64,000 nucleotides of DNA from positions 1-64,000 of the forward strand of contig CBDBZY010000043.1 of the NCBI GenBank assembly GCA_965213685.1, in the 5' to 3' direction. Under the pieces are notes generated by a model, which was given only the letters and a program-made list of their open reading frames with translations, did no database searches and was not told the origin of the DNA. Source of the DNA: a bacterium (GTDB lineage: Bacteria; UBA8248). Positions 19,857-32,199 of the stretch are shown here, piece after piece. The translations under genes and the position numbers were made by a program. Each line of letters opens with the position of its first letter. The first letter of the stretch is position 1.

Positions 19857-20939
19857 ATGAACGTTTCCAGACGCCGCATCCTGGGGGCCGCGTCCATGGT
19901 CGCGCCCCTGGCCGTCCTCGGGACGCCCGGTGCCGCGCGCGCCTCGATGGTCGGTCGCCTGTTCGACTGGCTGAACAACCGCCCCGTCGAGACGCCCGAA
20001 CCCGGGGAGGGAATCCTGGAGTTCGCCGCGCGCGTCCTGCCGGAGGTCACCGCGAACGAGAAATTCTACGTGCAGAGCATCGGCCCCGCCCCTCCCTCGC
20101 TGTCCCCGCGGCGGTGGCGGCTGAGAATCCGGGGCGAGGTGGCCGCGCCGCTCGCCCTTTCCTTGTCGGATTTGAACGCGCTGCCGGAGGAGACGGCCTG
20201 GGCGACGATCACCTGCATCGGCAATCCGGTGGGCGGCGGGCAGATAGGCAACGCCCTGTGGGGCGGGGTGCCGCTGCGGGGGCTCATCGAGCGCGCGGGC
20301 CTGGCCGGAGGCGTCCGCCGCTCGGTCTCCGCCCGCGTCGTCTTTCGCGCGGCGGACGGCTACCATGACTCCATCGACCTCGCACAGGCCCTGGACCCGA
20401 GAACCCTTCTGTGCACGCGCATGAACGGGGCGCCCCTTCCGCGGGCACATGGCGCTCCGCTCCGGCTCCTGGTGCCGGGCGTCTATGGCCTCAAGAACGT
20501 GAAGTGGATCGAATCCATCGAAATTTCCACGAAGGGGCACGGCGGCTACTGGCAAAGGCGCGGCTGGTCGGATGAGGCGGTCGTCGAGACGCTCAGCCGC
20601 TTCGAGGCGCCCAGAAGGCGCGTCCGGGTTCGCGCGCGCAGCATCTGGCTTGTCGGCTCCGCTTTCGCGGGGGAGCGGGGGATTCGCAAGGTGGAGGTGA
20701 CCTACGGCCAGGGGAGGCGCTTGCGGCCCTGGGCGCCCGCCCTGCTCAAAAAACCTCTCGGGCCTCTCGCGTGGAGCGTCTGGGCGTTTCCCATGCGGTT
20801 TCGGGAAAACGGGTTCTACCCGGCGCAGGTGCGGGCGGTGGACGGCGGCGGGGCGGTGCAGGCGGAGCGGATTTCCGACCCGCAGCCGGGCGGTGCGACC
20901 GGGCGGATGGGGCTGAGCGTCTCGGTGGGCGGGCTGTAG
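19857..20939 (+). CDS. Tat-exported molybdopterin-dependent oxidoreductase, sulfite oxidase family
   Basis: 'SRRRIL' twin-Arg signal; Mo-ligand Cys in 'ITCIGN', 'GNALWGGVPL', 'HGAPLRLLVPGVYGLKNVKW'. Confidence 0.88.
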   Translation: MNVSRRRILGAASMVAPLAVLGTPGAARASMVGRLFDWLNNRPVETPEPGEGILEFAARVLPEVTANEKFYVQSIGPAPPSLSPRRWRLRIRGEVAAPLALSLSDLNALPEETAWATITCIGNPVGGGQIGNALWGGVPLRGLIERAGLAGGVRRSVSARVVFRAADGYHDSIDLAQALDPRTLLCTRMNGAPLPRAHGAPLRLLVPGVYGLKNVKWIESIEISTKGHGGYWQRRGWSDEAVVETLSRFEAPRRRVRVRARSIWLVGSAFAGERGIRKVEVTYGQGRRLRPWAPALLKKPLGPLAWSVWAFPMRFRENGFYPAQVRAVDGGGAVQAERISDPQPGGATGRMGLSVSVGGL

Positions 20940-20969
20940 GCGCGCGGCGAGCGGGCGCGCGACCCACGG

Positions 20970-21009
20970 AAAAACCCCGCCGGCGTGTGCGCGACCGGCG
21001 GGGTTTTTT
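20970..21009. terminator. Bidirectional intrinsic terminator
   Basis: AAAAACCCCGCCGG-loop-CCGGCGGGGTTTTTT between convergent genes. Confidence 0.9.
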
Positions 21010-21069
21010 GTGCTGCCGGAAAGGGGAGGGGCGTCCCCCGTATACTACCCTATACGAACGCGGCCCCTA

Positions 21070-22127
21070 CTAGCGGCGTTTGCCGCCCACGATGTTCGTG
21101 GCGCGCTTCTGGCGTTTGATCATCCACTCCTGGGGCGCCTCGATGCCGCTGCGATCCAGGATGTCGAGGTTGTGCTTGTAGGCCATGAAGTTCTGGATGT
21201 AGCTGAGCGTGCCGCCTCGGTGGGGAGCACCGGGCGGCAGCCGGCCCTCAATCAGGTCGATCACGTTATACACGGCCTCTTTCGCCATGGCGATCTGCTC
21301 GGCCAGGACAGCGGCGTGCACCCAGCCGTCTCGGATGTCTTTTTCGATGCCGACGACGAGGTTGTGGGTCACGATCTTGATCTGTCCAGGCTTGTAGCCG
21401 GCCGCCTTGACGGCGTCCACCGTGCCGCGGGCGATGAGCGTCGCCCAGGGGTAGATGCCCTTGACGTCGGGATGTTTTTTCAGCAAATCCTCCGCCGTCT
21501 GGTAGGCGGCCTGCACGTTGGATTTCGTGAATTCCTTGGCCACAATCTTGATTTTGGGATAGTGGCTCATGTAATCCTCGAAACCCTTGGCCATGGAGGT
21601 CACCATCTCGATGCCGCTGGGCCCGGGCAGCATCATCACCTTGCCCTGGTAGTCGATGGCGTGGGCCACCGTGGAGCCGATGAGAAGACCCAGCTCGTAG
21701 CTGTTTTTCATGACGCGGTTCTTGACGCGCGGGCTGTCCAGGTCGATGTTGTCCACGACGATCTTGATGCCCTTGTCCATCGCCTTGTGTACCGCGTTCA
21801 CCATCCCCTTGGTGCTGATGGGGCAGATGATCATGCCGTCGTACTTCGCGGCGATGATGTCCTCCACGTGGGCCACCTGCTTGGGCAGGAACTCATAGCC
21901 GCCCGCGTCGAACATGGTCACGGTCACGCCGGCGTCCTTGGCGGCCTGCACGCTGCCGTACCATTTCGAGAAGAAATAGGGGTCCACGCGTTCGGCACCA
22001 CCACGGCGATCTTGTATTTCTTCTTCGCCTTCCGGGCCGCGTCGGCGTCCGGTGCCGCTGTCATCGACACGAACAGAAACGTGACGACAGAGGCGAGGAT
22101 CAGAAAAGAGCGGAACATCTTTTTCAT
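21070..22127 (-). CDS. Sugar-type ABC transporter substrate-binding protein, RbsB-like (frameshift near 21988)
   Basis: Signal peptide 'MKKMFRSFLIL...' then 'IAVVVPNA/VDPYF', 'DGMIICP', 'LLKKHPDVKGIY'. Confidence 0.85.
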
Positions 22128-22231
22128 TTTGAATCTCCTCCTCGCAGAATGGGTTTCGCGGACGAAGGCACTCTCCGCCCTCCGCCGCGCGAAAGGAAAC
22201 ATGACTGCCGCATGAAGCCACTTCCCTGTTT

Positions 22232-23227
22232 CTACTCCCGCCGCTTGCGGGAGCTGATGACCACGGCCGTTATCAGCAAAACGCCCACCACCACCTCCCG
22301 GGCGAACGTGCCCACGCCCAGGAGGATGAGGCCGTTCAGCAAGAACGTGAGGAACAGCGTCCCGATGGCGGCCTGCGTCACGCCGCCCTCGCCGCCGTGA
22401 AACGTCGTGCCCCCCACCACGGTGGCCGCCAGGGACTGGAACTCGAGCTGGAATCCCGCCAGGCCGTTCGTGGCCGGCAGCCGCGCCAGGTAGAGGAACG
22501 AGGTGACGCCCACGCAGATGCCGCTGATCAGGTAGCAGATGAGCTTCACCCTGCCGGTGTCGATGCCCGAGAGGCGCGCGGCCTCCTCGTTTCCGCCGGT
22601 CAGGTAGATCGCCCGGCCCAGTATCGTGCGCTTGGTCAGCAGGTGGAGGATGATGAAGAAGGCGATGGCGATGAACAGCGTGCCGGGGACATGGAAGAAA
22701 TCCGTGAGGCCGATGGCTTGCAGGATGTCTTTCTGCTCGCCCGTGAACTGGTGGATGGTGCGCCCGCCCGTGAAGACCAGGGCGATGCCGGCGCAGATGA
22801 AAAGCATGCTCAGGGTGACGATGAAGGGCTGTATCTTCACGCGCCCGACGAGGTAGCCGTTGATGAAGCCGAACATCGTCGCCATTCCGATGCCCATCAG
22901 AACGCCCACCGCAAGACCGAAGTCCAGGATGCCCTGCGCCATCACCACGCTCGAGAGGCTCAGCAGGGAGCCCTGGCTCAGGTCGATGCCCGAGACGAGG
23001 AGCACCATGCTTTGGCCGGCGACGATGAAGAACAGGAGGGAGGCGTTGCGGAGCTGGTTGGTCAGGTTATGGGTCTCGATGAAGTTGTTGACGTAGCCCA
23101 TCAGCTGCAGGATGTAGAAGATGAGCATCATCATGATGAACACCACGAACAAGCCGTGTTTCTCGTAGTTGAACGTGGCGAGGAAGGAGGCGGAAGGTCG
23201 CGCCGGGGCCTCCGCTGCATTCGTCAT
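22232..23227 (-). CDS. Sugar-type ABC transporter permease (RbsC-like)
   Basis: 'GIDLSQGS', 'GRAIYLTGGNEEAARLSGI', 'AATVVGGT'. Confidence 0.93.
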   Translation of the reverse strand: MTNAAEAPARPSASFLATFNYEKHGLFVVFIMMMLIFYILQLMGYVNNFIETHNLTNQLRNASLLFFIVAGQSMVLLVSGIDLSQGSLLSLSSVVMAQGILDFGLAVGVLMGIGMATMFGFINGYLVGRVKIQPFIVTLSMLFICAGIALVFTGGRTIHQFTGEQKDILQAIGLTDFFHVPGTLFIAIAFFIILHLLTKRTILGRAIYLTGGNEEAARLSGIDTGRVKLICYLISGICVGVTSFLYLARLPATNGLAGFQLEFQSLAATVVGGTTFHGGEGGVTQAAIGTLFLTFLLNGLILLGVGTFAREVVVGVLLITAVVISSRKRRE

Positions 23228-23243
23228 GTTGGCAGAATCTCCC

Positions 23244-24257
23244 TTAGTTTTTTTGCTCCCGCAGGGTGCTGACCCAGATGGATGAGAGGATCACCAGGCC
23301 GACGATGATTTGCTGGCGGTAGGTGTCGATTCCCATGATGTTCAGCCCGTTCACCAGGAATATGATCAGGAAAACGCCCAGCGTCGTGCCCAGCACGCCG
23401 CCGCGCCCGCCAAAAATGTGGGTGCCGCCGATGATGGTCGCCCCGATCGATTGCAGCAGCTGATCGCCGCCGCCCAGCCTCGGCTCGCCCGCCGCGCTGA
23501 CGTTCGCGGAGAGCAGAAGGCCCGCGAAGCCGCACAAGAGTCCGCCTATGCCGAAGATGGCGACCTTCATGGCGGGGAAGTGGATGCCCGCGGAAATCGC
23601 CGTCTGCTCGTTGCCGCCGAGGGCGTACACGTAGGTGCCGAAGCGGGTGTATTTGAGCAGATACCACATCGCCGTCAGCGCGATGACGATCCAGATGAAC
23701 GTGAAGGGGATGGGCCCCAGGTTTCCTTTCGCCAGGAAGACATACGCCTCCTCCACGTGCTTGTGCAGGGTCGCGCCCTCGCGCGCCCCGCCCATCTGGA
23801 GGCCGCCCGTCCAGAGCTGGGCCGTGCCGCTGCCGACGAAGAGCATTCCCAATGTGGCGATGAACGGCTGCACCCGCATCACGCCGACGAAGAATCCGTT
23901 GATGACGCCGCACAGCAGGCCGATGCCGAGGCCGGCGATGAGGCCGACGAAAAACCCGAAGTGCAGCATCGCACTCCAGGCCATCACGCTCACCACGCTC
24001 ATGATCGACCCCTGCGAGAGGTCAAACCCTCCCGAGATGATGACCAGCGTTTGCGCGTAGGCGAGAAAGAAGAGCCAGGCGTCGCGGCGCACGACGTTGG
24101 CGAAGTTCTCGAGGGTGAGGAAGTTCTCCGTCGCGAAGGTGTAGAAGAGCATCAGGACGGCGAACGCGAAGATGAGGAGGACGCGCTCCCAGGGGATGTC
24201 CTTGGCCGAATATCCCAGAACGAGCTTCTCATTCCCCGTAGAGACCGCGGCGCTCAT
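23244..24257 (-). CDS. Sugar-type ABC transporter permease (RbsC-like)
   Basis: 'GGFDLSQGS', 'YALGGNEQTA', 'IGATIIGGT..FGGRG'. Confidence 0.93.
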   Translation of the reverse strand: MSAAVSTGNEKLVLGYSAKDIPWERVLLIFAFAVLMLFYTFATENFLTLENFANVVRRDAWLFFLAYAQTLVIISGGFDLSQGSIMSVVSVMAWSAMLHFGFFVGLIAGLGIGLLCGVINGFFVGVMRVQPFIATLGMLFVGSGTAQLWTGGLQMGGAREGATLHKHVEEAYVFLAKGNLGPIPFTFIWIVIALTAMWYLLKYTRFGTYVYALGGNEQTAISAGIHFPAMKVAIFGIGGLLCGFAGLLLSANVSAAGEPRLGGGDQLLQSIGATIIGGTHIFGGRGGVLGTTLGVFLIIFLVNGLNIMGIDTYRQQIIVGLVILSSIWVSTLREQKN

Positions 24258-24315
24258 GGAATTTCCTCCGGTCGGTGATGCCTGGACAAGGCGCTCATTT
24301 GAGGGGGGCGAATAA

Positions 24316-26274
24316 TCATTCCGCCGTCATGGCGTAGCGCAGAATCTGCTCCTGCGTCGCCTCGTCCCTGTCGATATTTGCGGTGAGCCGTCCCTCGCGC
24401 ATCACCAGAATGCGGTCGCTCATTCCGAGTATCTCGGGCAGTTCGCTGGATATCATCATGACGGCGACGCCTTCCTTGGCGAGTTGCAGCATCTGGGAGT
24501 GCACCTCGAATTTTGCGCCCACGTCGATCCCGCGGGTCGGCTCGTCGAAGATGAGCACGTTGGCGCGCCGGAAAAGCCATTTGGCGAGAACGACCTTTTG
24601 CTGGTTGCCGCCCGAGAGGAAGCGGATTTGCGTGTCCTGATCCGGCGTCATGATTTTCAGCTGCCGGATGTGCTCCTCCACGAAGTCCTTCTCCAGGCTC
24701 AGGTTGAGGAACCACCGCTTGATGAGGCGGATGATGTTCGCGCTCGTGGTGTTGAAGGCGACCGAGAGAATCTGGGTGAGCCCCTGGGTTTTCCTGTCCT
24801 CGGGCAACAGACCGAGCCCCCGCTGGATGGCCAGGCTGGGAGTCCACTTGCGCTCATGGGTGAGGATTTTCAGGAAGCGGAGCGCGACCATGGCGACGCC
24901 GCCCCAAATCATGACCCATTCGAGAACGAAATTCTGGGTGAACAGGCTCGTCACGACCATCGCGCATATCGCCAGGGCGTACCATTTCGCAAAATCGACG
25001 GCCATGGTGCGCCAGAGGTACTCCCGCTCCAGAAACCACATTCCCGCCTGCCGTATGACGGCCAGCCCGGTGGCGGCGATGTAGGGGACCGGGCCGTTCG
25101 GTATGTTGTACAACGGCCCGCCGAGGAGCCATTCGTAGAACCACGTGCCGCTGAGCAGAGGCGGCGGCGCGTTCATGTTGAGCGTGACGGGGTCGTAGAT
25201 GCCCTGAAAGATGACGGTGAAGATGGGTAGTGCCAGCATGAAGACGAGAACGTCCACGACCGCGAGCCAAAGCGGGTAGTGGGGCAGACGCTGTAGTGCC
25301 TCTTTCTCCTTCGTCGTGCTCGTCATCTCCACGGTGCCGCCATCCACCGGGTCCGCCCCCATGACGGCGCGGGCGACCTCGGTTCGCCCCGCGCCGACGA
25401 GACCGGAGAGTCCCACGATTTCGCCGTAGTGCAGGTCGAAGTCGATGTCCTCGAATACGCCGCGCCGCGTGAGTCCGCGCACGCGCAGGGCCACCTCCCC
25501 GCGCTCGCGGGGCGTCCAGGGGAATTTCTCATCCAGTGCGCGTCCCACCATCTGCGTGATCAGGAAATCCAGCGCCACGTCTTCCACTTCCCACGTGCCC
25601 ATGTATTCCCCGTCGCGCAGGACGGTGACGCGGTCCCCTATCTCATGGACTTCCTCGAGCCGGTGGGAGATGTAGATGATGCCCACCCCTTGCTCGCGCA
25701 ACAGCTTGACGGCCTTGAACAGCTCCTCGATCTCATGTCCGCTCAAAGAGGAGGTGGGCTCGTCCATCACCAGAATCTTGCAGTCGAACGCGAGGGCGCG
25801 CGCGATCTCCACCATTTGCTGATCCGCCACGCTCAAGGAGCGGACCGGCGCGTTGACGTCGATCCGCACGTCGAGGCGCTCCATGATCGCCCGGGACTCC
25901 TGCTCGACCCTGGCCCAGTCCACGCGCCGCATCAGGCCCGGCAGGACCGGCTCCCGGCCCAGGAAGATGTTTTTCGCCACGCTCAAATCCGGCACCAGGT
26001 TCAGCTCCTGGTAGATGACGCTGATTCCCAAATCCCGTCCGGTTCTCGCGTCGGGGATGACGGTGGGTGCTCCGTTGATCTCGATTTCGCCGGCGTCTGC
26101 GTGGTAGATGCCCGCCAGAATCTTGATGAGCGTGGATTTTCCGGCGCCGTTCTCGCCCAGCAGAATGTGCACCTCGCCTTCGTTGACGCTGAAATCGACC
26201 TCCTTGAGCGCGTGCACGCCCGGGAAGGACTTGTCGATTCCCTTCATTTTCAGCAGGTTCGCAGGCTGACGCAC
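24316..26274 (-). CDS. Sugar ABC transporter ATP-binding protein (RbsA/MglA-like) with an internal membrane insertion
   Basis: Walker A 'GENGAGKST', 'MDEPT', second cassette 'GAGRTE', 'PEDRK', 'LSGGNQQK', 'DEPTRGID'; 652 aa versus about 500 typical. Confidence 0.92.
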   Translation of the reverse strand: MRQPANLLKMKGIDKSFPGVHALKEVDFSVNEGEVHILLGENGAGKSTLIKILAGIYHADAGEIEINGAPTVIPDARTGRDLGISVIYQELNLVPDLSVAKNIFLGREPVLPGLMRRVDWARVEQESRAIMERLDVRIDVNAPVRSLSVADQQMVEIARALAFDCKILVMDEPTSSLSGHEIEELFKAVKLLREQGVGIIYISHRLEEVHEIGDRVTVLRDGEYMGTWEVEDVALDFLITQMVGRALDEKFPWTPRERGEVALRVRGLTRRGVFEDIDFDLHYGEIVGLSGLVGAGRTEVARAVMGADPVDGGTVEMTSTTKEKEALQRLPHYPLWLAVVDVLVFMLALPIFTVIFQGIYDPVTLNMNAPPPLLSGTWFYEWLLGGPLYNIPNGPVPYIAATGLAVIRQAGMWFLEREYLWRTMAVDFAKWYALAICAMVVTSLFTQNFVLEWVMIWGGVAMVALRFLKILTHERKWTPSLAIQRGLGLLPEDRKTQGLTQILSVAFNTTSANIIRLIKRWFLNLSLEKDFVEEHIRQLKIMTPDQDTQIRFLSGGNQQKVVLAKWLFRRANVLIFDEPTRGIDVGAKFEVHSQMLQLAKEGVAVMMISSELPEILGMSDRILVMREGRLTANIDRDEATQEQILRYAMTAE

Positions 26275-26558
26275 GAGATGCCGTTTCCCAGATTAGAATG
26301 GTGCGGATTGCGAGTTTAAATTTGTGAACGAAACCCGGAGGAGCCTCCCGCCACGTTACCCGACAAAATCCCAACTTCACGAAATTTAGAAATTTAACTT
26401 GGGCTATCCTATAGGGATTGCGCTTCTTTTTCAACCCCGAATCAACCCCCGAAAAATCGCAAGGCGATCATCTTGGGGGGAGGATGATGGTATGATGCGG
26501 AGGTTCGATTTCGGCGGAATCTTTTTTAAGAGAGTCTTTTGAGAGAGGAAATGTCCGG

Positions 26559-26875: not shown

Positions 26876-27484
26876 TCACCGGTCGATGACGTTTCGGTAT
26901 TCGGCGGACGGCGTGTGCCGCGCCGGCCAGTCGGCGCCATCCTCGAAGCGCGCCAGAACGCTTGCGTGGCGCGCGAAGCCGCCCTCCAGCAGCGCGACCG
27001 AGACGATCTCCACAATCGCCGGCTCATCAAAGCCGTGCGCGCGCAACGCCCGGAACTCCTCATCGCTCATCTGCTCGTTGCGCGTGATCTTTCTGGCCAC
27101 GCGGAAGACCGCTTTTTCGGACTCGGGCAATGCGGCGTCTTCAAAATCATGGAGTTTTTCCACTTCGCTCTCGTCGAGTCCCATGCGGTGAATGAGGTCG
27201 GTCTTGTGAAAATTCACGCAACGGGGGCAGTCAGAGGCGACCGCGCAAACCATGGCGATGCGGTTGGCCAGGTCGCGCGAAATGCGCCCCTCCAGGACTT
27301 CCAGGCGTTTTTGCAGCTCCCAGAACCCGCGCAGGAGCCCCGGCACGTGGGCGAAGAACCCGAACAAGGGCCCCAGCCAGCGCGGGTCCTTCAGCCGACA
27401 TATCTCCTCGTAAATCTGCGCCACCTCCCCCTCGGCGTCGTCGGGCTTTACGAGACGAAAGGGTTCAAAGCCGGATGTCTTCAT
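26876..27484 (-). CDS. AhpD/carboxymuconolactone decarboxylase-like peroxidase-related protein
   Basis: 'DAEGEVAQIYEEI', 'CPRCVNFH' CxxC...H motif, 'LRAHGFDE..IVEI'. Confidence 0.82.
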   Translation of the reverse strand: MKTSGFEPFRLVKPDDAEGEVAQIYEEICRLKDPRWLGPLFGFFAHVPGLLRGFWELQKRLEVLEGRISRDLANRIAMVCAVASDCPRCVNFHKTDLIHRMGLDESEVEKLHDFEDAALPESEKAVFRVARKITRNEQMSDEEFRALRAHGFDEPAIVEIVSVALLEGGFARHASVLARFEDGADWPARHTPSAEYRNVIDR

Positions 27485-27542
27485 TTTTTCTCCAGGGAAT
27501 GGATTTTCCGTTGCTGGATGCGATGGGAGGGACAACCAAAAC

Positions 27543-27577
27543 AAAAACCCCCCTGCCTCGGCAGGGGGGCTTTTTTT
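27543..27577. terminator. Intrinsic terminator downstream of the TAXI gene
   Basis: AAAAACCCCCCTGCC-TC-GGCAGGGGGGCTTTTTTT. Confidence 0.88.
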
Positions 27578-28884: not shown

Positions 28885-31800
28885 ATGAAAGCGGAATCAG
28901 ACCCCACCCAGTCGGCACCCCTCGTGCGGGCTCTGGTTTTCACCACCTCCTGGCTGTGCGTGCTGTCGGGCTTGTATCACATCTCCGCCGTCTATCTGCG
29001 GCCCCTGCCGGGCGAGATGCACCCCAACATGCACATGCTACTGGCCTACGCCATCCTCTTGATTGGCGGTGCCGGGGCGATGCCCGAAATTTACGGGGAC
29101 AAGATTCGCCGGCTGAAGTTTCTTCCCGTTTTGTATGTTCTTTCCCTGGTTCCCGCCGTCATCTTCTACTATTTCGTCCATGAGATGGGGGAGGAGTGGT
29201 CCGACGCGAGCGTCTGGTGGGCATACGCACTCCCGTTCGTCATCTGGATAGCGATGATGGTCGTCGAGAAGTCCTGGCTCGCTCTTCTGCTCTGGGTTCT
29301 GGGCTTTGTCCCGGTGCCGATTTTGTTCCTCTACTGGGATTCCCTGCCGGAAAGCACGCATGAGCCCACGCTCTGGTGGCTGTTGATCGCGTGCGCCGCC
29401 ATCCCCACGATGTGGACCCTGTTCGCCATCTTCTTCCGGCCCGCAGCCGGCGTGAGAAAGGCGGCCGGCTTTCTCGCCGTGTTTTTCGCGGCACTCATCC
29501 TGGGGGGATGGCGGGTGGGCCTCTGGGCCGGGCAGAGCGACGAGGTGCGGAGCGTCTTCTACCTCTGGCCGGCGGCCATACTCGCTTTTCCGCTCTTCTG
29601 GGCGAAAAAACGCATCAAGGAGGTGTTCGAGGATTACCCAGCGCATCCGTTCCCGGCCGGGTTCACGATTGGCCTGAACGCGGGGATGCTCTTCTTCGTG
29701 GCGACCGCCTGTCTGTATCTCTTCTACTATCACGAGGACATGGTGGATCGCCCCGGTGCCCCGACGATCGGCGACGCGCGCGTCGGCTTCGTCATGCTCA
29801 TCGTCGCCCTCGAACTGACGCGGCGCTGCTTCGGCCCCCCGCTCCCCACCCTGGCGGTCATCTCCTTCTCCTACGGGGTCTGGGGCAACCTGTTTGCGCC
29901 TCCGTTCGGACACGGCGGCCACACCTGGCTCGAGCTCCAGGCGAAGCTCTCCACCGATTTCATCGGAGGGGTGCTGGGGTTTCTGGTCGTCATCTCGGCC
30001 ACGTTCATCATCATGTTCCTGATCCTGGGGGCGTTTTTGCACGAGTCGGGCGCGGGCCGCTTTTTCGTGAACTTCGCCCTGGGCCTGTTCGGCAAGATGC
30101 GCGCCGGGGCCGGCCTCGCGGCGGTGGGCTCGAGCGCGCTCATGGGCACGGTGTCGGGCAGTGCCTCCGGCAACGTCGTGACCACGGGCACGTTCACCAT
30201 CCCCCTGATGAAGCGCATCGGCCTGAGTCCGCACATCGCCGGGGCGGCGGAGGCGGCGGCCAGCAGCGGCGGGCAGATCATGCCTCCCGTCATGGGGGCG
30301 GGCGCCTTCATCATGAGCGAACTCATCGAGGTGCCGTATTTCCAGATCATCGGGTACGCCACCATACCGGCCATCCTGTATTTCACCATCGTGGGGATCA
30401 ACATCCACTTCGCGGCGGGTGCGCTGAACATCCAGCCGCTGCCCAGCTCCGAGATTCCGAGCTGGAAGGACGAACTGAAAAACGGATGGTTCTATCTCGT
30501 GCCCCTGGCGTTTCTGGTGTATTTCCTGTTCGAGGGCAGAACGCCCGTGTTCGCCGGCGTCATGTCGGTCTTCATCATGGTGGGCGTCTGGTTCTACCGG
30601 AATGTGACGGAGTTCCTGGGCGGCTTGCGGCGGGGCGAGAACGCCGTCGCCGACGAGATATTCGTTTTCGTGCCGGTCGCTTTCTGGGGATTCGTCTTCT
30701 TCCTGTTTGCCCTGCTCGCGATTTTTGAGTGGGCCTCCGCCCTGTCGTTGGGGATGCACGGAGCACCGACCTGGGGCGGCGCCGTCCGGGCCGCCCTGTG
30801 GCTGGGCGCCATCGGGTTTGTCCTGATTCGGGTTTTCACCCGCCTCTTCTCCTGGGTGGACCCATTCTGGAGGGAGATAGAGCGCAGCTGGCTCGCCGTC
30901 TTCCCGATCACCTTGCTGGGCCTGTGGAGTGCTTTTGGCTGGTCTTCCGGCGTGGCCGGGGCGGCCATCGTCCTGGCGCTGCTCTGCGGGTGGGCCGTCT
31001 TCAGAGGGAACGGGGCGCAGCCCGCCACGACCATACCCTGGTATTTCGCCGCGATCTGGGTGGGCGCCTATTACGCGCAGCAGGGGATCTACGCGCTTCT
31101 CCCTGCGGTCGCCGATTTCGGCGAATGGTTCATCCCTTTCGGGTTTATCTATGACGGCCTCATCTTCTTCGGGCTGGCCGTCCTCCTCCAGAGGGCGATT
31201 TTCGCGTTCATCCCCCCGGGGTCCGCGACGAGCGGCCCGACCCCGAGCCTCCCGCAGGTGCTGGCGGTGTCCTGCAACCCGTTCACCTACCTGATGCGGG
31301 CGGAGAAGACGGGCGAGACGGGCGCGGGCGTGCGGGCGGCGCAGAGCGCTTCGGGCTGGATTTTCAGCATCCGCGACGCCTTGCGGGTGGGGGGCAGGCA
31401 AGGGGCGGAGTTCGCCGTGACGCTCGCCACCATCGAGGTCGTCGTTCAGGTGCTCACGATCACGGGCGTGGGCAACAAGTTCGCCTTCATGATAGAGGCC
31501 CTCGCCAATGACATATGCCTGTTCGGCACAGCCGCCGCCGGCGGGTGCGCGTACTACATCGGCCTCGACGGCTTCTTCGTCGCCCTGCTGCTCACGGCGG
31601 TTTGCTGCGCGGTGCTGGGCATGGGGATGCCGACGACGGCGGCCTACGTGCTGCTCGCCATCCTGGGCGGGCCCGTGCTCATCAAGCTCGTCGGCCCCGA
31701 GCTCGCGCACGTCTACGGCGCGGAGTGGGCCAAGGAGTTTGTGGCCGCGAAGGGAGACCGCGTCGCCGCCCACATGTTCATCTTCTATTTCGCCATCCTC

Positions 31801-32199
31801 TCCGCCATCACGCCGCCCGTGGCGATAGCCTCGCTCGTGGGGGCCAAGCTGGCCGGGGCGCCCTATTTCAAGACGTCCATGATGTCCCTGCGCTTCGCCA
31901 TCGTGGGCTTCATCGTGCCGTTCTTGTTCATGTTCGACCCGGCTCTGCTCACGTTCGCGCATCCGCTGCGCGTCGCCCTCTCCGCCTCCATGACGCTTTT
32001 GGGTTTTGTCGCCTTCTCCGCGGGAACGCAGGGCTGGCTTCTGGGCAGGCTCCACACATACGAGCGCATTCTCCTGTTCGTCTGCTTCATCACGCTCATT
32101 TTGTTCATCATTTTCTTCAGCTTCGCCATGCTGATAGTCGGCCTGGTTTGCGGAGGGGTCCCCCTCGTCCGGCAGGTACGGGACATCAGGCGCGCCTGA
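28885..32199 (+). CDS. TRAP transporter fused 4TM/12TM permease (unusually long)
   Basis: 'SSALMGTVSGS', 'TGTFTIPLMK', 'ASSGGQIMPPVMGAGAFIM', 'LGMGMPTTAAY', 'HMFIFYFA', 'ITPPVA'. Confidence 0.93.
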   Translation: MKAESDPTQSAPLVRALVFTTSWLCVLSGLYHISAVYLRPLPGEMHPNMHMLLAYAILLIGGAGAMPEIYGDKIRRLKFLPVLYVLSLVPAVIFYYFVHEMGEEWSDASVWWAYALPFVIWIAMMVVEKSWLALLLWVLGFVPVPILFLYWDSLPESTHEPTLWWLLIACAAIPTMWTLFAIFFRPAAGVRKAAGFLAVFFAALILGGWRVGLWAGQSDEVRSVFYLWPAAILAFPLFWAKKRIKEVFEDYPAHPFPAGFTIGLNAGMLFFVATACLYLFYYHEDMVDRPGAPTIGDARVGFVMLIVALELTRRCFGPPLPTLAVISFSYGVWGNLFAPPFGHGGHTWLELQAKLSTDFIGGVLGFLVVISATFIIMFLILGAFLHESGAGRFFVNFALGLFGKMRAGAGLAAVGSSALMGTVSGSASGNVVTTGTFTIPLMKRIGLSPHIAGAAEAAASSGGQIMPPVMGAGAFIMSELIEVPYFQIIGYATIPAILYFTIVGINIHFAAGALNIQPLPSSEIPSWKDELKNGWFYLVPLAFLVYFLFEGRTPVFAGVMSVFIMVGVWFYRNVTEFLGGLRRGENAVADEIFVFVPVAFWGFVFFLFALLAIFEWASALSLGMHGAPTWGGAVRAALWLGAIGFVLIRVFTRLFSWVDPFWREIERSWLAVFPITLLGLWSAFGWSSGVAGAAIVLALLCGWAVFRGNGAQPATTIPWYFAAIWVGAYYAQQGIYALLPAVADFGEWFIPFGFIYDGLIFFGLAVLLQRAIFAFIPPGSATSGPTPSLPQVLAVSCNPFTYLMRAEKTGETGAGVRAAQSASGWIFSIRDALRVGGRQGAEFAVTLATIEVVVQVLTITGVGNKFAFMIEALANDICLFGTAAAGGCAYYIGLDGFFVALLLTAVCCAVLGMGMPTTAAYVLLAILGGPVLIKLVGPELAHVYGAEWAKEFVAAKGDRVAAHMFIFYFAILSAITPPVAIASLVGAKLAGAPYFKTSMMSLRFAIVGFIVPFLFMFDPALLTFAHPLRVALSASMTLLGFVAFSAGTQGWLLGRLHTYERILLFVCFITLILFIIFFSFAMLIVGLVCGGVPLVRQVRDIRRA

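Follow-up and report, generated by a model that had tools for sequence, protein, structure and literature searches.

ABC importer ATPases are regarded as soluble proteins that contact the membrane solely through the coupling helices of their permeases. In the window analysed here, a 64,000-nucleotide stretch of bacterial DNA (contig CBDBZY010000043.1, positions 1 to 64,000), one such ATPase carries extra in-frame codons that an earlier, sequence-only reading took for a multi-pass membrane domain. Can membrane helices be nested within the catalytic fold of an importer ATPase and, if so, what might they do there? The predicted nesting of a membrane domain in a CUT2-type ATPase is supported by conservation, topology signals and a fold model, and the position of this domain within the second nucleotide-binding domain (NBD2) offers a tentative guide to its role.

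A CUT2-type operon with an enlarged ATPase

The four genes of the operon (Table 1) show the features of the CUT2 family (TC 3.A.1.2), i.e. two fused NBDs in the ATPase, PF02653 permeases and a PF13407 binding protein, whose best solved relative, 4yhs, is labelled CUT2 family. RbsA, AraG, XylG and MglA share this composition, and annotation pipelines name the insert-bearing proteins as ordinary sugar ABC ATPases. The ATPase nevertheless scores below the cut-off of every canonical RbsA/AraG/XylG/MglA equivalog model in NCBIfam (AraG 554 vs 689, RbsA 524 vs 745, xylose 521 vs 699, MglA 478 vs 828). Its minus-strand reading frame runs through 652 codons without an internal stop and its motifs, which are invariant or nearly so in all 18 orthologues, follow the CUT2 pattern, in which one ATP site is consensus and the other degenerate. 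NBD1 retains Walker A, Walker B and the H-loop intact; in NBD2 Walker A is degenerate (GAGRT), the switch His is absent and the LSGGNQQ signature is intact. An insert-less relative (P0075) displays the same combination of consensus and degenerate motifs, so the domain that holds the insert was degenerate beforehand.

The order ATPase-permease-permease-binding protein is kept across all three insert-bearing genera, and both PF02653 permeases are linked to the ATPase in every locus of sufficient length. Two ordinary permeases had already been recognised in the earlier reading, and two PF02653 genes are indeed present. No other gene accompanies the operon in all three genera, with the exception of a convergent molybdo-oxidoreductase in the longer loci. 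In the window this is a molybdopterin oxidoreductase gene of the sulfite dehydrogenase/MsrP-like type (PF00174; 19737-20939, plus strand), which is convergent with the operon in the two genera where loci are long enough. On the other side, between the ABC operon and TAXI/TRAP genes, lies a carboxymuconolactone-decarboxylase/AhpD-like gene (26876-27544, minus strand), unmatched in 2 of the 6 same-genus loci examined. Scans for promoters and terminators gave results at chance level only.

Table 1. Coordinates of the operon and of the predicted parts of the insert, as positions in the window
Feature	Coordinates	Strand	Remarks
Tandem-NBD ABC ATPase, CUT2 type (RbsA/AraG/XylG-like), 652 aa	24316..26274	-	PF00005; best NCBIfam models AraG/RbsA/XylG
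Insert, residues 318-477 (T318-W477), 160 aa/codons	24844..25323	-	Replaces an 8-residue beta-hairpin segment of NBD2
Charged N-terminal linker, residues 318-334	25273..25323	-	Predicted short helix, cytoplasmic side; mean K+R 3.4
Predicted membrane helix 1, residues 335-357	25204..25272	-	Kink at P350; of its final 10 residues, 8 do not vary among 18 orthologues
Predicted periplasmic loop, residues 358-395	25090..25203	-	Pro/aromatic-rich, almost without K/R; short WFYEW helix
Predicted membrane helix 2, residues 396-415	25030..25089	-	Weakly hydrophobic; R408-Q409 invariant
Predicted membrane helix 3, residues 428-446	24937..24993	-	From hydropathy and fold model
Predicted membrane helix 4, residues 451-470	24865..24924	-	Followed by a basic link into NBD2, before the coupling-groove helix
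Permease 1 (PF02653), 337 aa	23244..24257	-	EAA-type coupling motif altered at two positions in the lineage
Permease 2 (PF02653), 331 aa	22232..23227	-	Canonical EAA-type motif
Periplasmic sugar-type binding protein (PF13407)	21070..22127	-	RbsB-type; frame interrupted at 21988 in the assembly
Basic C-terminal tail of the binding protein	21073..21114	-	Ends in NIVGGKRR, invariant in insert-linked operons

Reality, distribution and selection of the insert

The insert is flanked by GADPVDGGTVEM and TPSLAIQRGLGLLPEDRK and, by comparison with four insert-less relatives, has on one side the beta-strand that follows the second Walker A and on the other the helix that precedes the Q-loop. The sequence-only reading had put about 160 extra codons at 24844-25326, i.e. 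codons 317-477, and this estimate proved right to within the single codon that precedes the insert proper. Among 122 proteins, 7 of which could not be parsed, the second Walker A and the EDR motif are 201 residues apart in 21, 49 in 92 and 48 in 2. The net gain is thus 152 residues, with zero length variation among the 21 parsed insert-bearing proteins, and 94 insert-less relatives have 7-8 residues at the same position. The earlier statement that this loop is under 10 residues in RbsA and MglA holds, at 8 residues, for the insert-less relatives, which are the proteins that were compared.

The sequence context gives some reason to consider an assembly artefact or a neutral recent passenger such as a mobile or intein-like element. 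The assembly (G000) contains a frameshift at 21988 and, beside 3.07 Mb in 49 contigs of more than 60% GC, 4.90 Mb of lower-GC sequence, probably host or other foreign DNA binned along with it. Four sequencing runs were aligned on 20900-26500. In three of these a single contig spans the whole operon and crosses both junctions, which excludes the misassembly at the junctions that the sequence-only reading had named as one of two findings that would refute it; two of the three may be the source of this DNA, and the third differs from it at 39 letters. In the fourth run the insert is covered in pieces only. All four runs, together with three relatives, carry one extra base at 21988, and the frameshift in the window is an assembly error in a binding-protein gene that is intact. 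The insert occupies the same site in three genera, is under purifying selection, goes unmatched in Pfam, NCBIfam and plasmids, and has a GC3 (0.84) that matches that of the host gene (0.86-0.88). The insert is real, no artefact, and the artefact or passenger reading is hardly conceivable.

Within the phylum, 27 of 51 genomes encode the insert, all of them in three genera of one family, and it occurs in 25 of 61 related genomes (the own genome counted in both sets). With the own genome excluded, the three genera contain it in 21 of 22, 4 of 5 and 1 of 1 genomes; it was found in none of 13 genomes from the family's other six genera and in none of 9 from other families. In the own genus a single genome has no insert; it is 79% complete and encodes the binding protein, with no full-length match to the ATPase. 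Source labels of the insert-bearing relatives read Nitrospinota. The insertion site is identical in the three genera at 63-84% identity. In one of these genomes (G031), the insert-bearing ATPase has a frameshift beyond the insert, near residue 533 (L023, 4927-4938).

A search with the first half of the ATPase gave a similarly sharp boundary. Among the best 120 of 7,435 matches, the 20 with an identity of 74% or more all bear the insert, one of them breaking off inside it. None of the remaining 100 exceeds 60% identity, and their lengths are 489-535 residues, save for one three-module protein. A 759-residue protein (P0026) was considered as another carrier and rejected, being composed of three ABC modules without hydrophobic segments. 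In a FastTree phylogeny of 116 ATPases built with the insert removed, the 19 insert-bearing proteins form one clade (local support 1.0) on a stem of 0.39, indicating that the insert has a single origin. Pairwise comparison within genera (231 pairs) gave a dN/dS of 0.105 for the insert as against 0.036-0.047 in the NBD parts, with a value of 0.05 for the outer loop (residues 359-397); these ratios indicate that the insert is under purifying selection.

Searches with the insert alone recovered only its own cluster: its profile matched that one among 1.84 billion representatives. All 21 insert-bearing matches in a set of 5.8 billion proteins also contain PF00005 (lengths 358-1141 searched). Pfam, NCBIfam and plasmids gave nothing, and PHROGs returned a single member at chance level (E 0.044). 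Against sequences of solved structures the best E value was 0.52, with EmrE and MscM at 0.5-1, and no second copy was found elsewhere in the own genome. Foldseek comparison of the predicted fold with the PDB and viral models gave nothing at E<=0.001. The best fold match (VIA) was 8b5l_t, a chain of the TRAP translocon complex, with a Z of 9.9 that is under the level called meaningful for helical bundles (rmsd 3.2, 111 residues aligned). Among known four-helix membrane folds, represented by the TRAP translocon subunit, MAPEG and SMR, no clear match emerged.

Two ideas closer to home were considered and rejected. The first was kinship with the extra membrane segments of a neighbouring TRAP permease, for which hhalign gave probabilities of 0.2% and 0.5%. 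This fused permease (28885-32199, plus strand) has 1104 residues, as against frames of 640-842 in seven paralogues. It contains a long membrane region at its N-terminus and some 240 additional hydrophobic residues near 575-830, features that are kept within the genus (about 70% and 85%). Two more TRAP permeases in the genome (C13:113897 and C24:43144) have internal hydrophobic inserts. The second was a genome-wide habit of inserting helices into ABC ATPases; a multi-helix insert within an NBD occurs in just 1 of 65 NBD-containing frames, and two further frames have one borderline segment each.

Predicted membrane topology

Hydropathy, the pattern of basic residues and AlphaFold models all predict four helices in the insert. 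The four helices quoted in the sequence-only reading are all present in the sequence and three of them are clearly hydrophobic as described; the second is weak. Across 18 orthologues the 19-residue Kyte-Doolittle mean peaks at 2.48 for helix 1, 1.62 for helix 3 and 1.92 for helix 4; the peak of helix 2 is only about 1.1. Individual proteins give two to four hydrophobic segments when the cut-off is set at 1.6. Mean K+R counts over 27 sequences alternate between 3.4 in the N-terminal link, 0.4 in the first loop, 3.2 in the loop after helix 2, 0.07 in the third loop and 3.2 in the C-terminal link. The alternation agrees with four crossings and two cytoplasmic ends, the latter being demanded by nesting within a cytoplasmic domain. 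The outer loop is acidic, with a D+E count of 2.15 against 0.44 for K+R.

AlphaFold2, run on the insert alone with 25 sequences, returned four long helices (pLDDT 74, pTM 0.70); 2 of the 5 models exceed a pLDDT of 70, the other three are below 60, and the outer loop falls below 50 in parts. The same four helices appear in a full-length model with a pLDDT of 62, in which residues 472-569 are below 50; weakness around NBD2 makes this model uninformative on geometry. Taken together, the insert is predicted to comprise four membrane helices, with both ends cytoplasmic and a 38-residue periplasmic loop.

The weakness of helix 2, which also contains R408-Q409, leaves some room for fewer crossings, either two accompanied by re-entrant or surface helices or none at all in a hydrophobic peripheral domain, and many orthologues give just two or three segments at the 1.6 threshold. 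We consider such arrangements very unlikely. The K+R alternation matches exactly four crossings and the model gives four long helices; moreover, a fourth crossing is needed because both ends must be cytoplasmic and three helices are clearly hydrophobic.

Conservation is unevenly spread over the domain. Of its 160 columns, 57 are invariant. In helix 1, positions 348-357 are invariant on all faces, a degree of constraint that exceeds the need of an anchor in contact with lipid only. Many positions in helices 2-4 are variable, as expected of lipid-facing residues.

Predicted position at the coupling groove and possible roles

Some indication of where the domain sits comes from E. coli LptB, against which insert-less NBD2 gives ranges of equal length (9-76 to 19-86). 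With that offset, which is based on the equal range lengths and not on a residue-by-residue alignment, the replaced hairpin equals LptB 63-70 and the end of the insert precedes the equivalents of L72 and H73. In LptB these two residues cross-link to LptFG in vivo, and D64 faces the cytoplasm (PMC5082905). Importer NBDs are described as lying very near the membrane, with a coupling cleft that includes the Q-loop (PMC3971661); this closeness is in keeping with the two connections of the bundle, a linker of 17 residues ahead of helix 1 and a short one behind helix 4. On the LptB-based placement the bundle would sit beside the permease that docks on NBD2, and the end of the insert is predicted to adjoin the permease-binding groove.

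We favour the view that the nested, predicted four-helix bundle gives the ATPase an anchor in the inner membrane and packs on the permease pair as an accessory subunit, and hold it about equally likely to be right or wrong. The insert does not seem to take the place of any lost part, because the ATPase motifs and both permeases are complete. Transport would run as in other tandem-NBD importers, with a consensus site formed by Walker A and B of NBD1 and the signature of NBD2, and with the other site degenerate. The chain would leave NBD2 on its cytoplasmic face, reach the membrane through the 17-residue linker and re-enter NBD2 at the rim of the coupling groove. Kept in this way beside the NBD2-docking permease, the bundle would fix or assemble the contact between ATPase and permease and play no part in the pore. 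The fixed length, the invariant columns and the constraint on the outer loop suggest that the insert makes specific contacts.

The permeases themselves provide mixed testimony. Permease 1 has 32 lineage-fixed positions, several of them aromatic, and two changes in its coupling motif. Such differences may be no more than a result of the long branch that leads to the lineage, which measures 0.39 for the ATPase. Relative to 91 outside relatives, permease 1 has 0 deleted columns, and a role of the insert in supplying helices missing from a permease was rejected on this ground for permease 1; permease 2 was compared with one relative only. Since the permeases lack no helices there is no obvious need for an extra subunit, which, with the weak hydrophobicity of helix 2, counts against an accessory subunit.

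Alternatively, the insert could be a membrane anchor, or a dock for a partner outside the operon (a membrane protein or lipid), that makes no specific contact with the other subunits. The bundle folds as a self-contained unit in the model, the permeases are complete, helices 2-4 vary as lipid-facing residues would, and the best fold match, although below the meaningful level, is to the translocon chain 8b5l_t. A single amphipathic helix would suffice as an anchor, however, and fixed length, the 57 invariant columns and the constrained outer loop are more than such a role asks for. Nor does the operon have a constant companion gene across the three genera, apart from the molybdo-oxidoreductase of the longer loci. 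We consider this reading unlikely.

A different kind of contact is suggested by the binding protein. All 31 complete insert-linked loci (several of which are the same genome twice; two further loci are incomplete) encode the basic tail that ends in NIVGGKRR. The 7 related binding proteins encoded outside such operons, the nearest of them 37% identical, all lack it. The insert may thus be a tether or sensor, whose acidic-aromatic outer loop binds the basic tail and either keeps the binding protein at the transporter or signals its docking to the degenerate NBD. Co-occurrence of tail and insert (31/31 vs 0/7) and an acidic outer loop that is as constrained as the NBDs both speak for it. Against it, the co-occurrence on one long branch amounts to a single event, the outgroup binding proteins are only 24-37% identical, and a basic tail could equally bind lipids or permeases. 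We regard a tether or sensor, too, as possible but improbable. A more specific version, in which the insert is a private link from ATPase to periplasm, with the outer loop capturing the tail and the last helix feeding the coupling groove of the degenerate NBD, is in our judgement distinctly doubtful. Were it true, the motor would tether or sense the binding protein while bypassing the permeases, a coupling route that is undescribed for ABC importers.

The insert-bearing ATPase can be set beside several known systems. UvrA, the ABC-F arm, the eEF3 chromodomain and the CFTR regulatory insertion are extra domains nested in an NBD fold; these are soluble, whereas the insert described here is predicted to span the membrane. 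ABC NBDs have been described as cytosolic (PMC13543919). In RbsA, AraG, XylG and MglA the protein is soluble and the NBD2 hairpin short, in contrast to the predicted 160-residue membrane domain of this ATPase. MsbA, Sav1866 and P-glycoprotein also combine ATPase and membrane helices in one chain, although exporters of this type are fused end to end and their membrane domain is the pathway (PMC3971661). In the present ATPase it is the NBD fold itself that the predicted helices interrupt, and separate genes encode two complete permeases. Consistent with this, the insert is internal and contains no transporter membrane domain recognised by Pfam or NCBIfam, which sets it apart from a fusion of NBD and transmembrane domain. 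As far as the literature was searched (titles and abstract openings, with few subscription papers), membrane helices inside an importer NBD are undescribed, in keeping with the earlier remark that no example was known.

The nearest insert-less operon (L030/P0075, labelled Candidatus Tectomicrobia) has the same gene order and an ATPase that is 58-63% identical and falls in the sister group of the insert clade; it is without the insert, without the basic tail of the binding protein, and adjoins corrinoid methyltransferase-like genes. Downstream of that operon (L030, 1000-9000) are genes resembling a homocysteine methyltransferase domain, a B12-binding protein and a uroporphyrinogen-decarboxylase-like methyltransferase, corrinoid-type neighbours that hint at a methylated substrate for this relative. 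With so close an insert-less operon at hand, a swap of the insert would be experimentally simple.

The reach of these findings is limited to three genera of one uncultured family. A comparison of the CUT2 permeases with solved structures found no match, and a membrane-anchored ATPase may yield a more stable complex for the first structure of a CUT2 permease. More generally, the NBD2 hairpin is marked as a site that tolerates a whole domain, and a predicted membrane domain of fixed length, held under selection within a catalytic fold, would break the rule that the ATPases of ABC importers are soluble.
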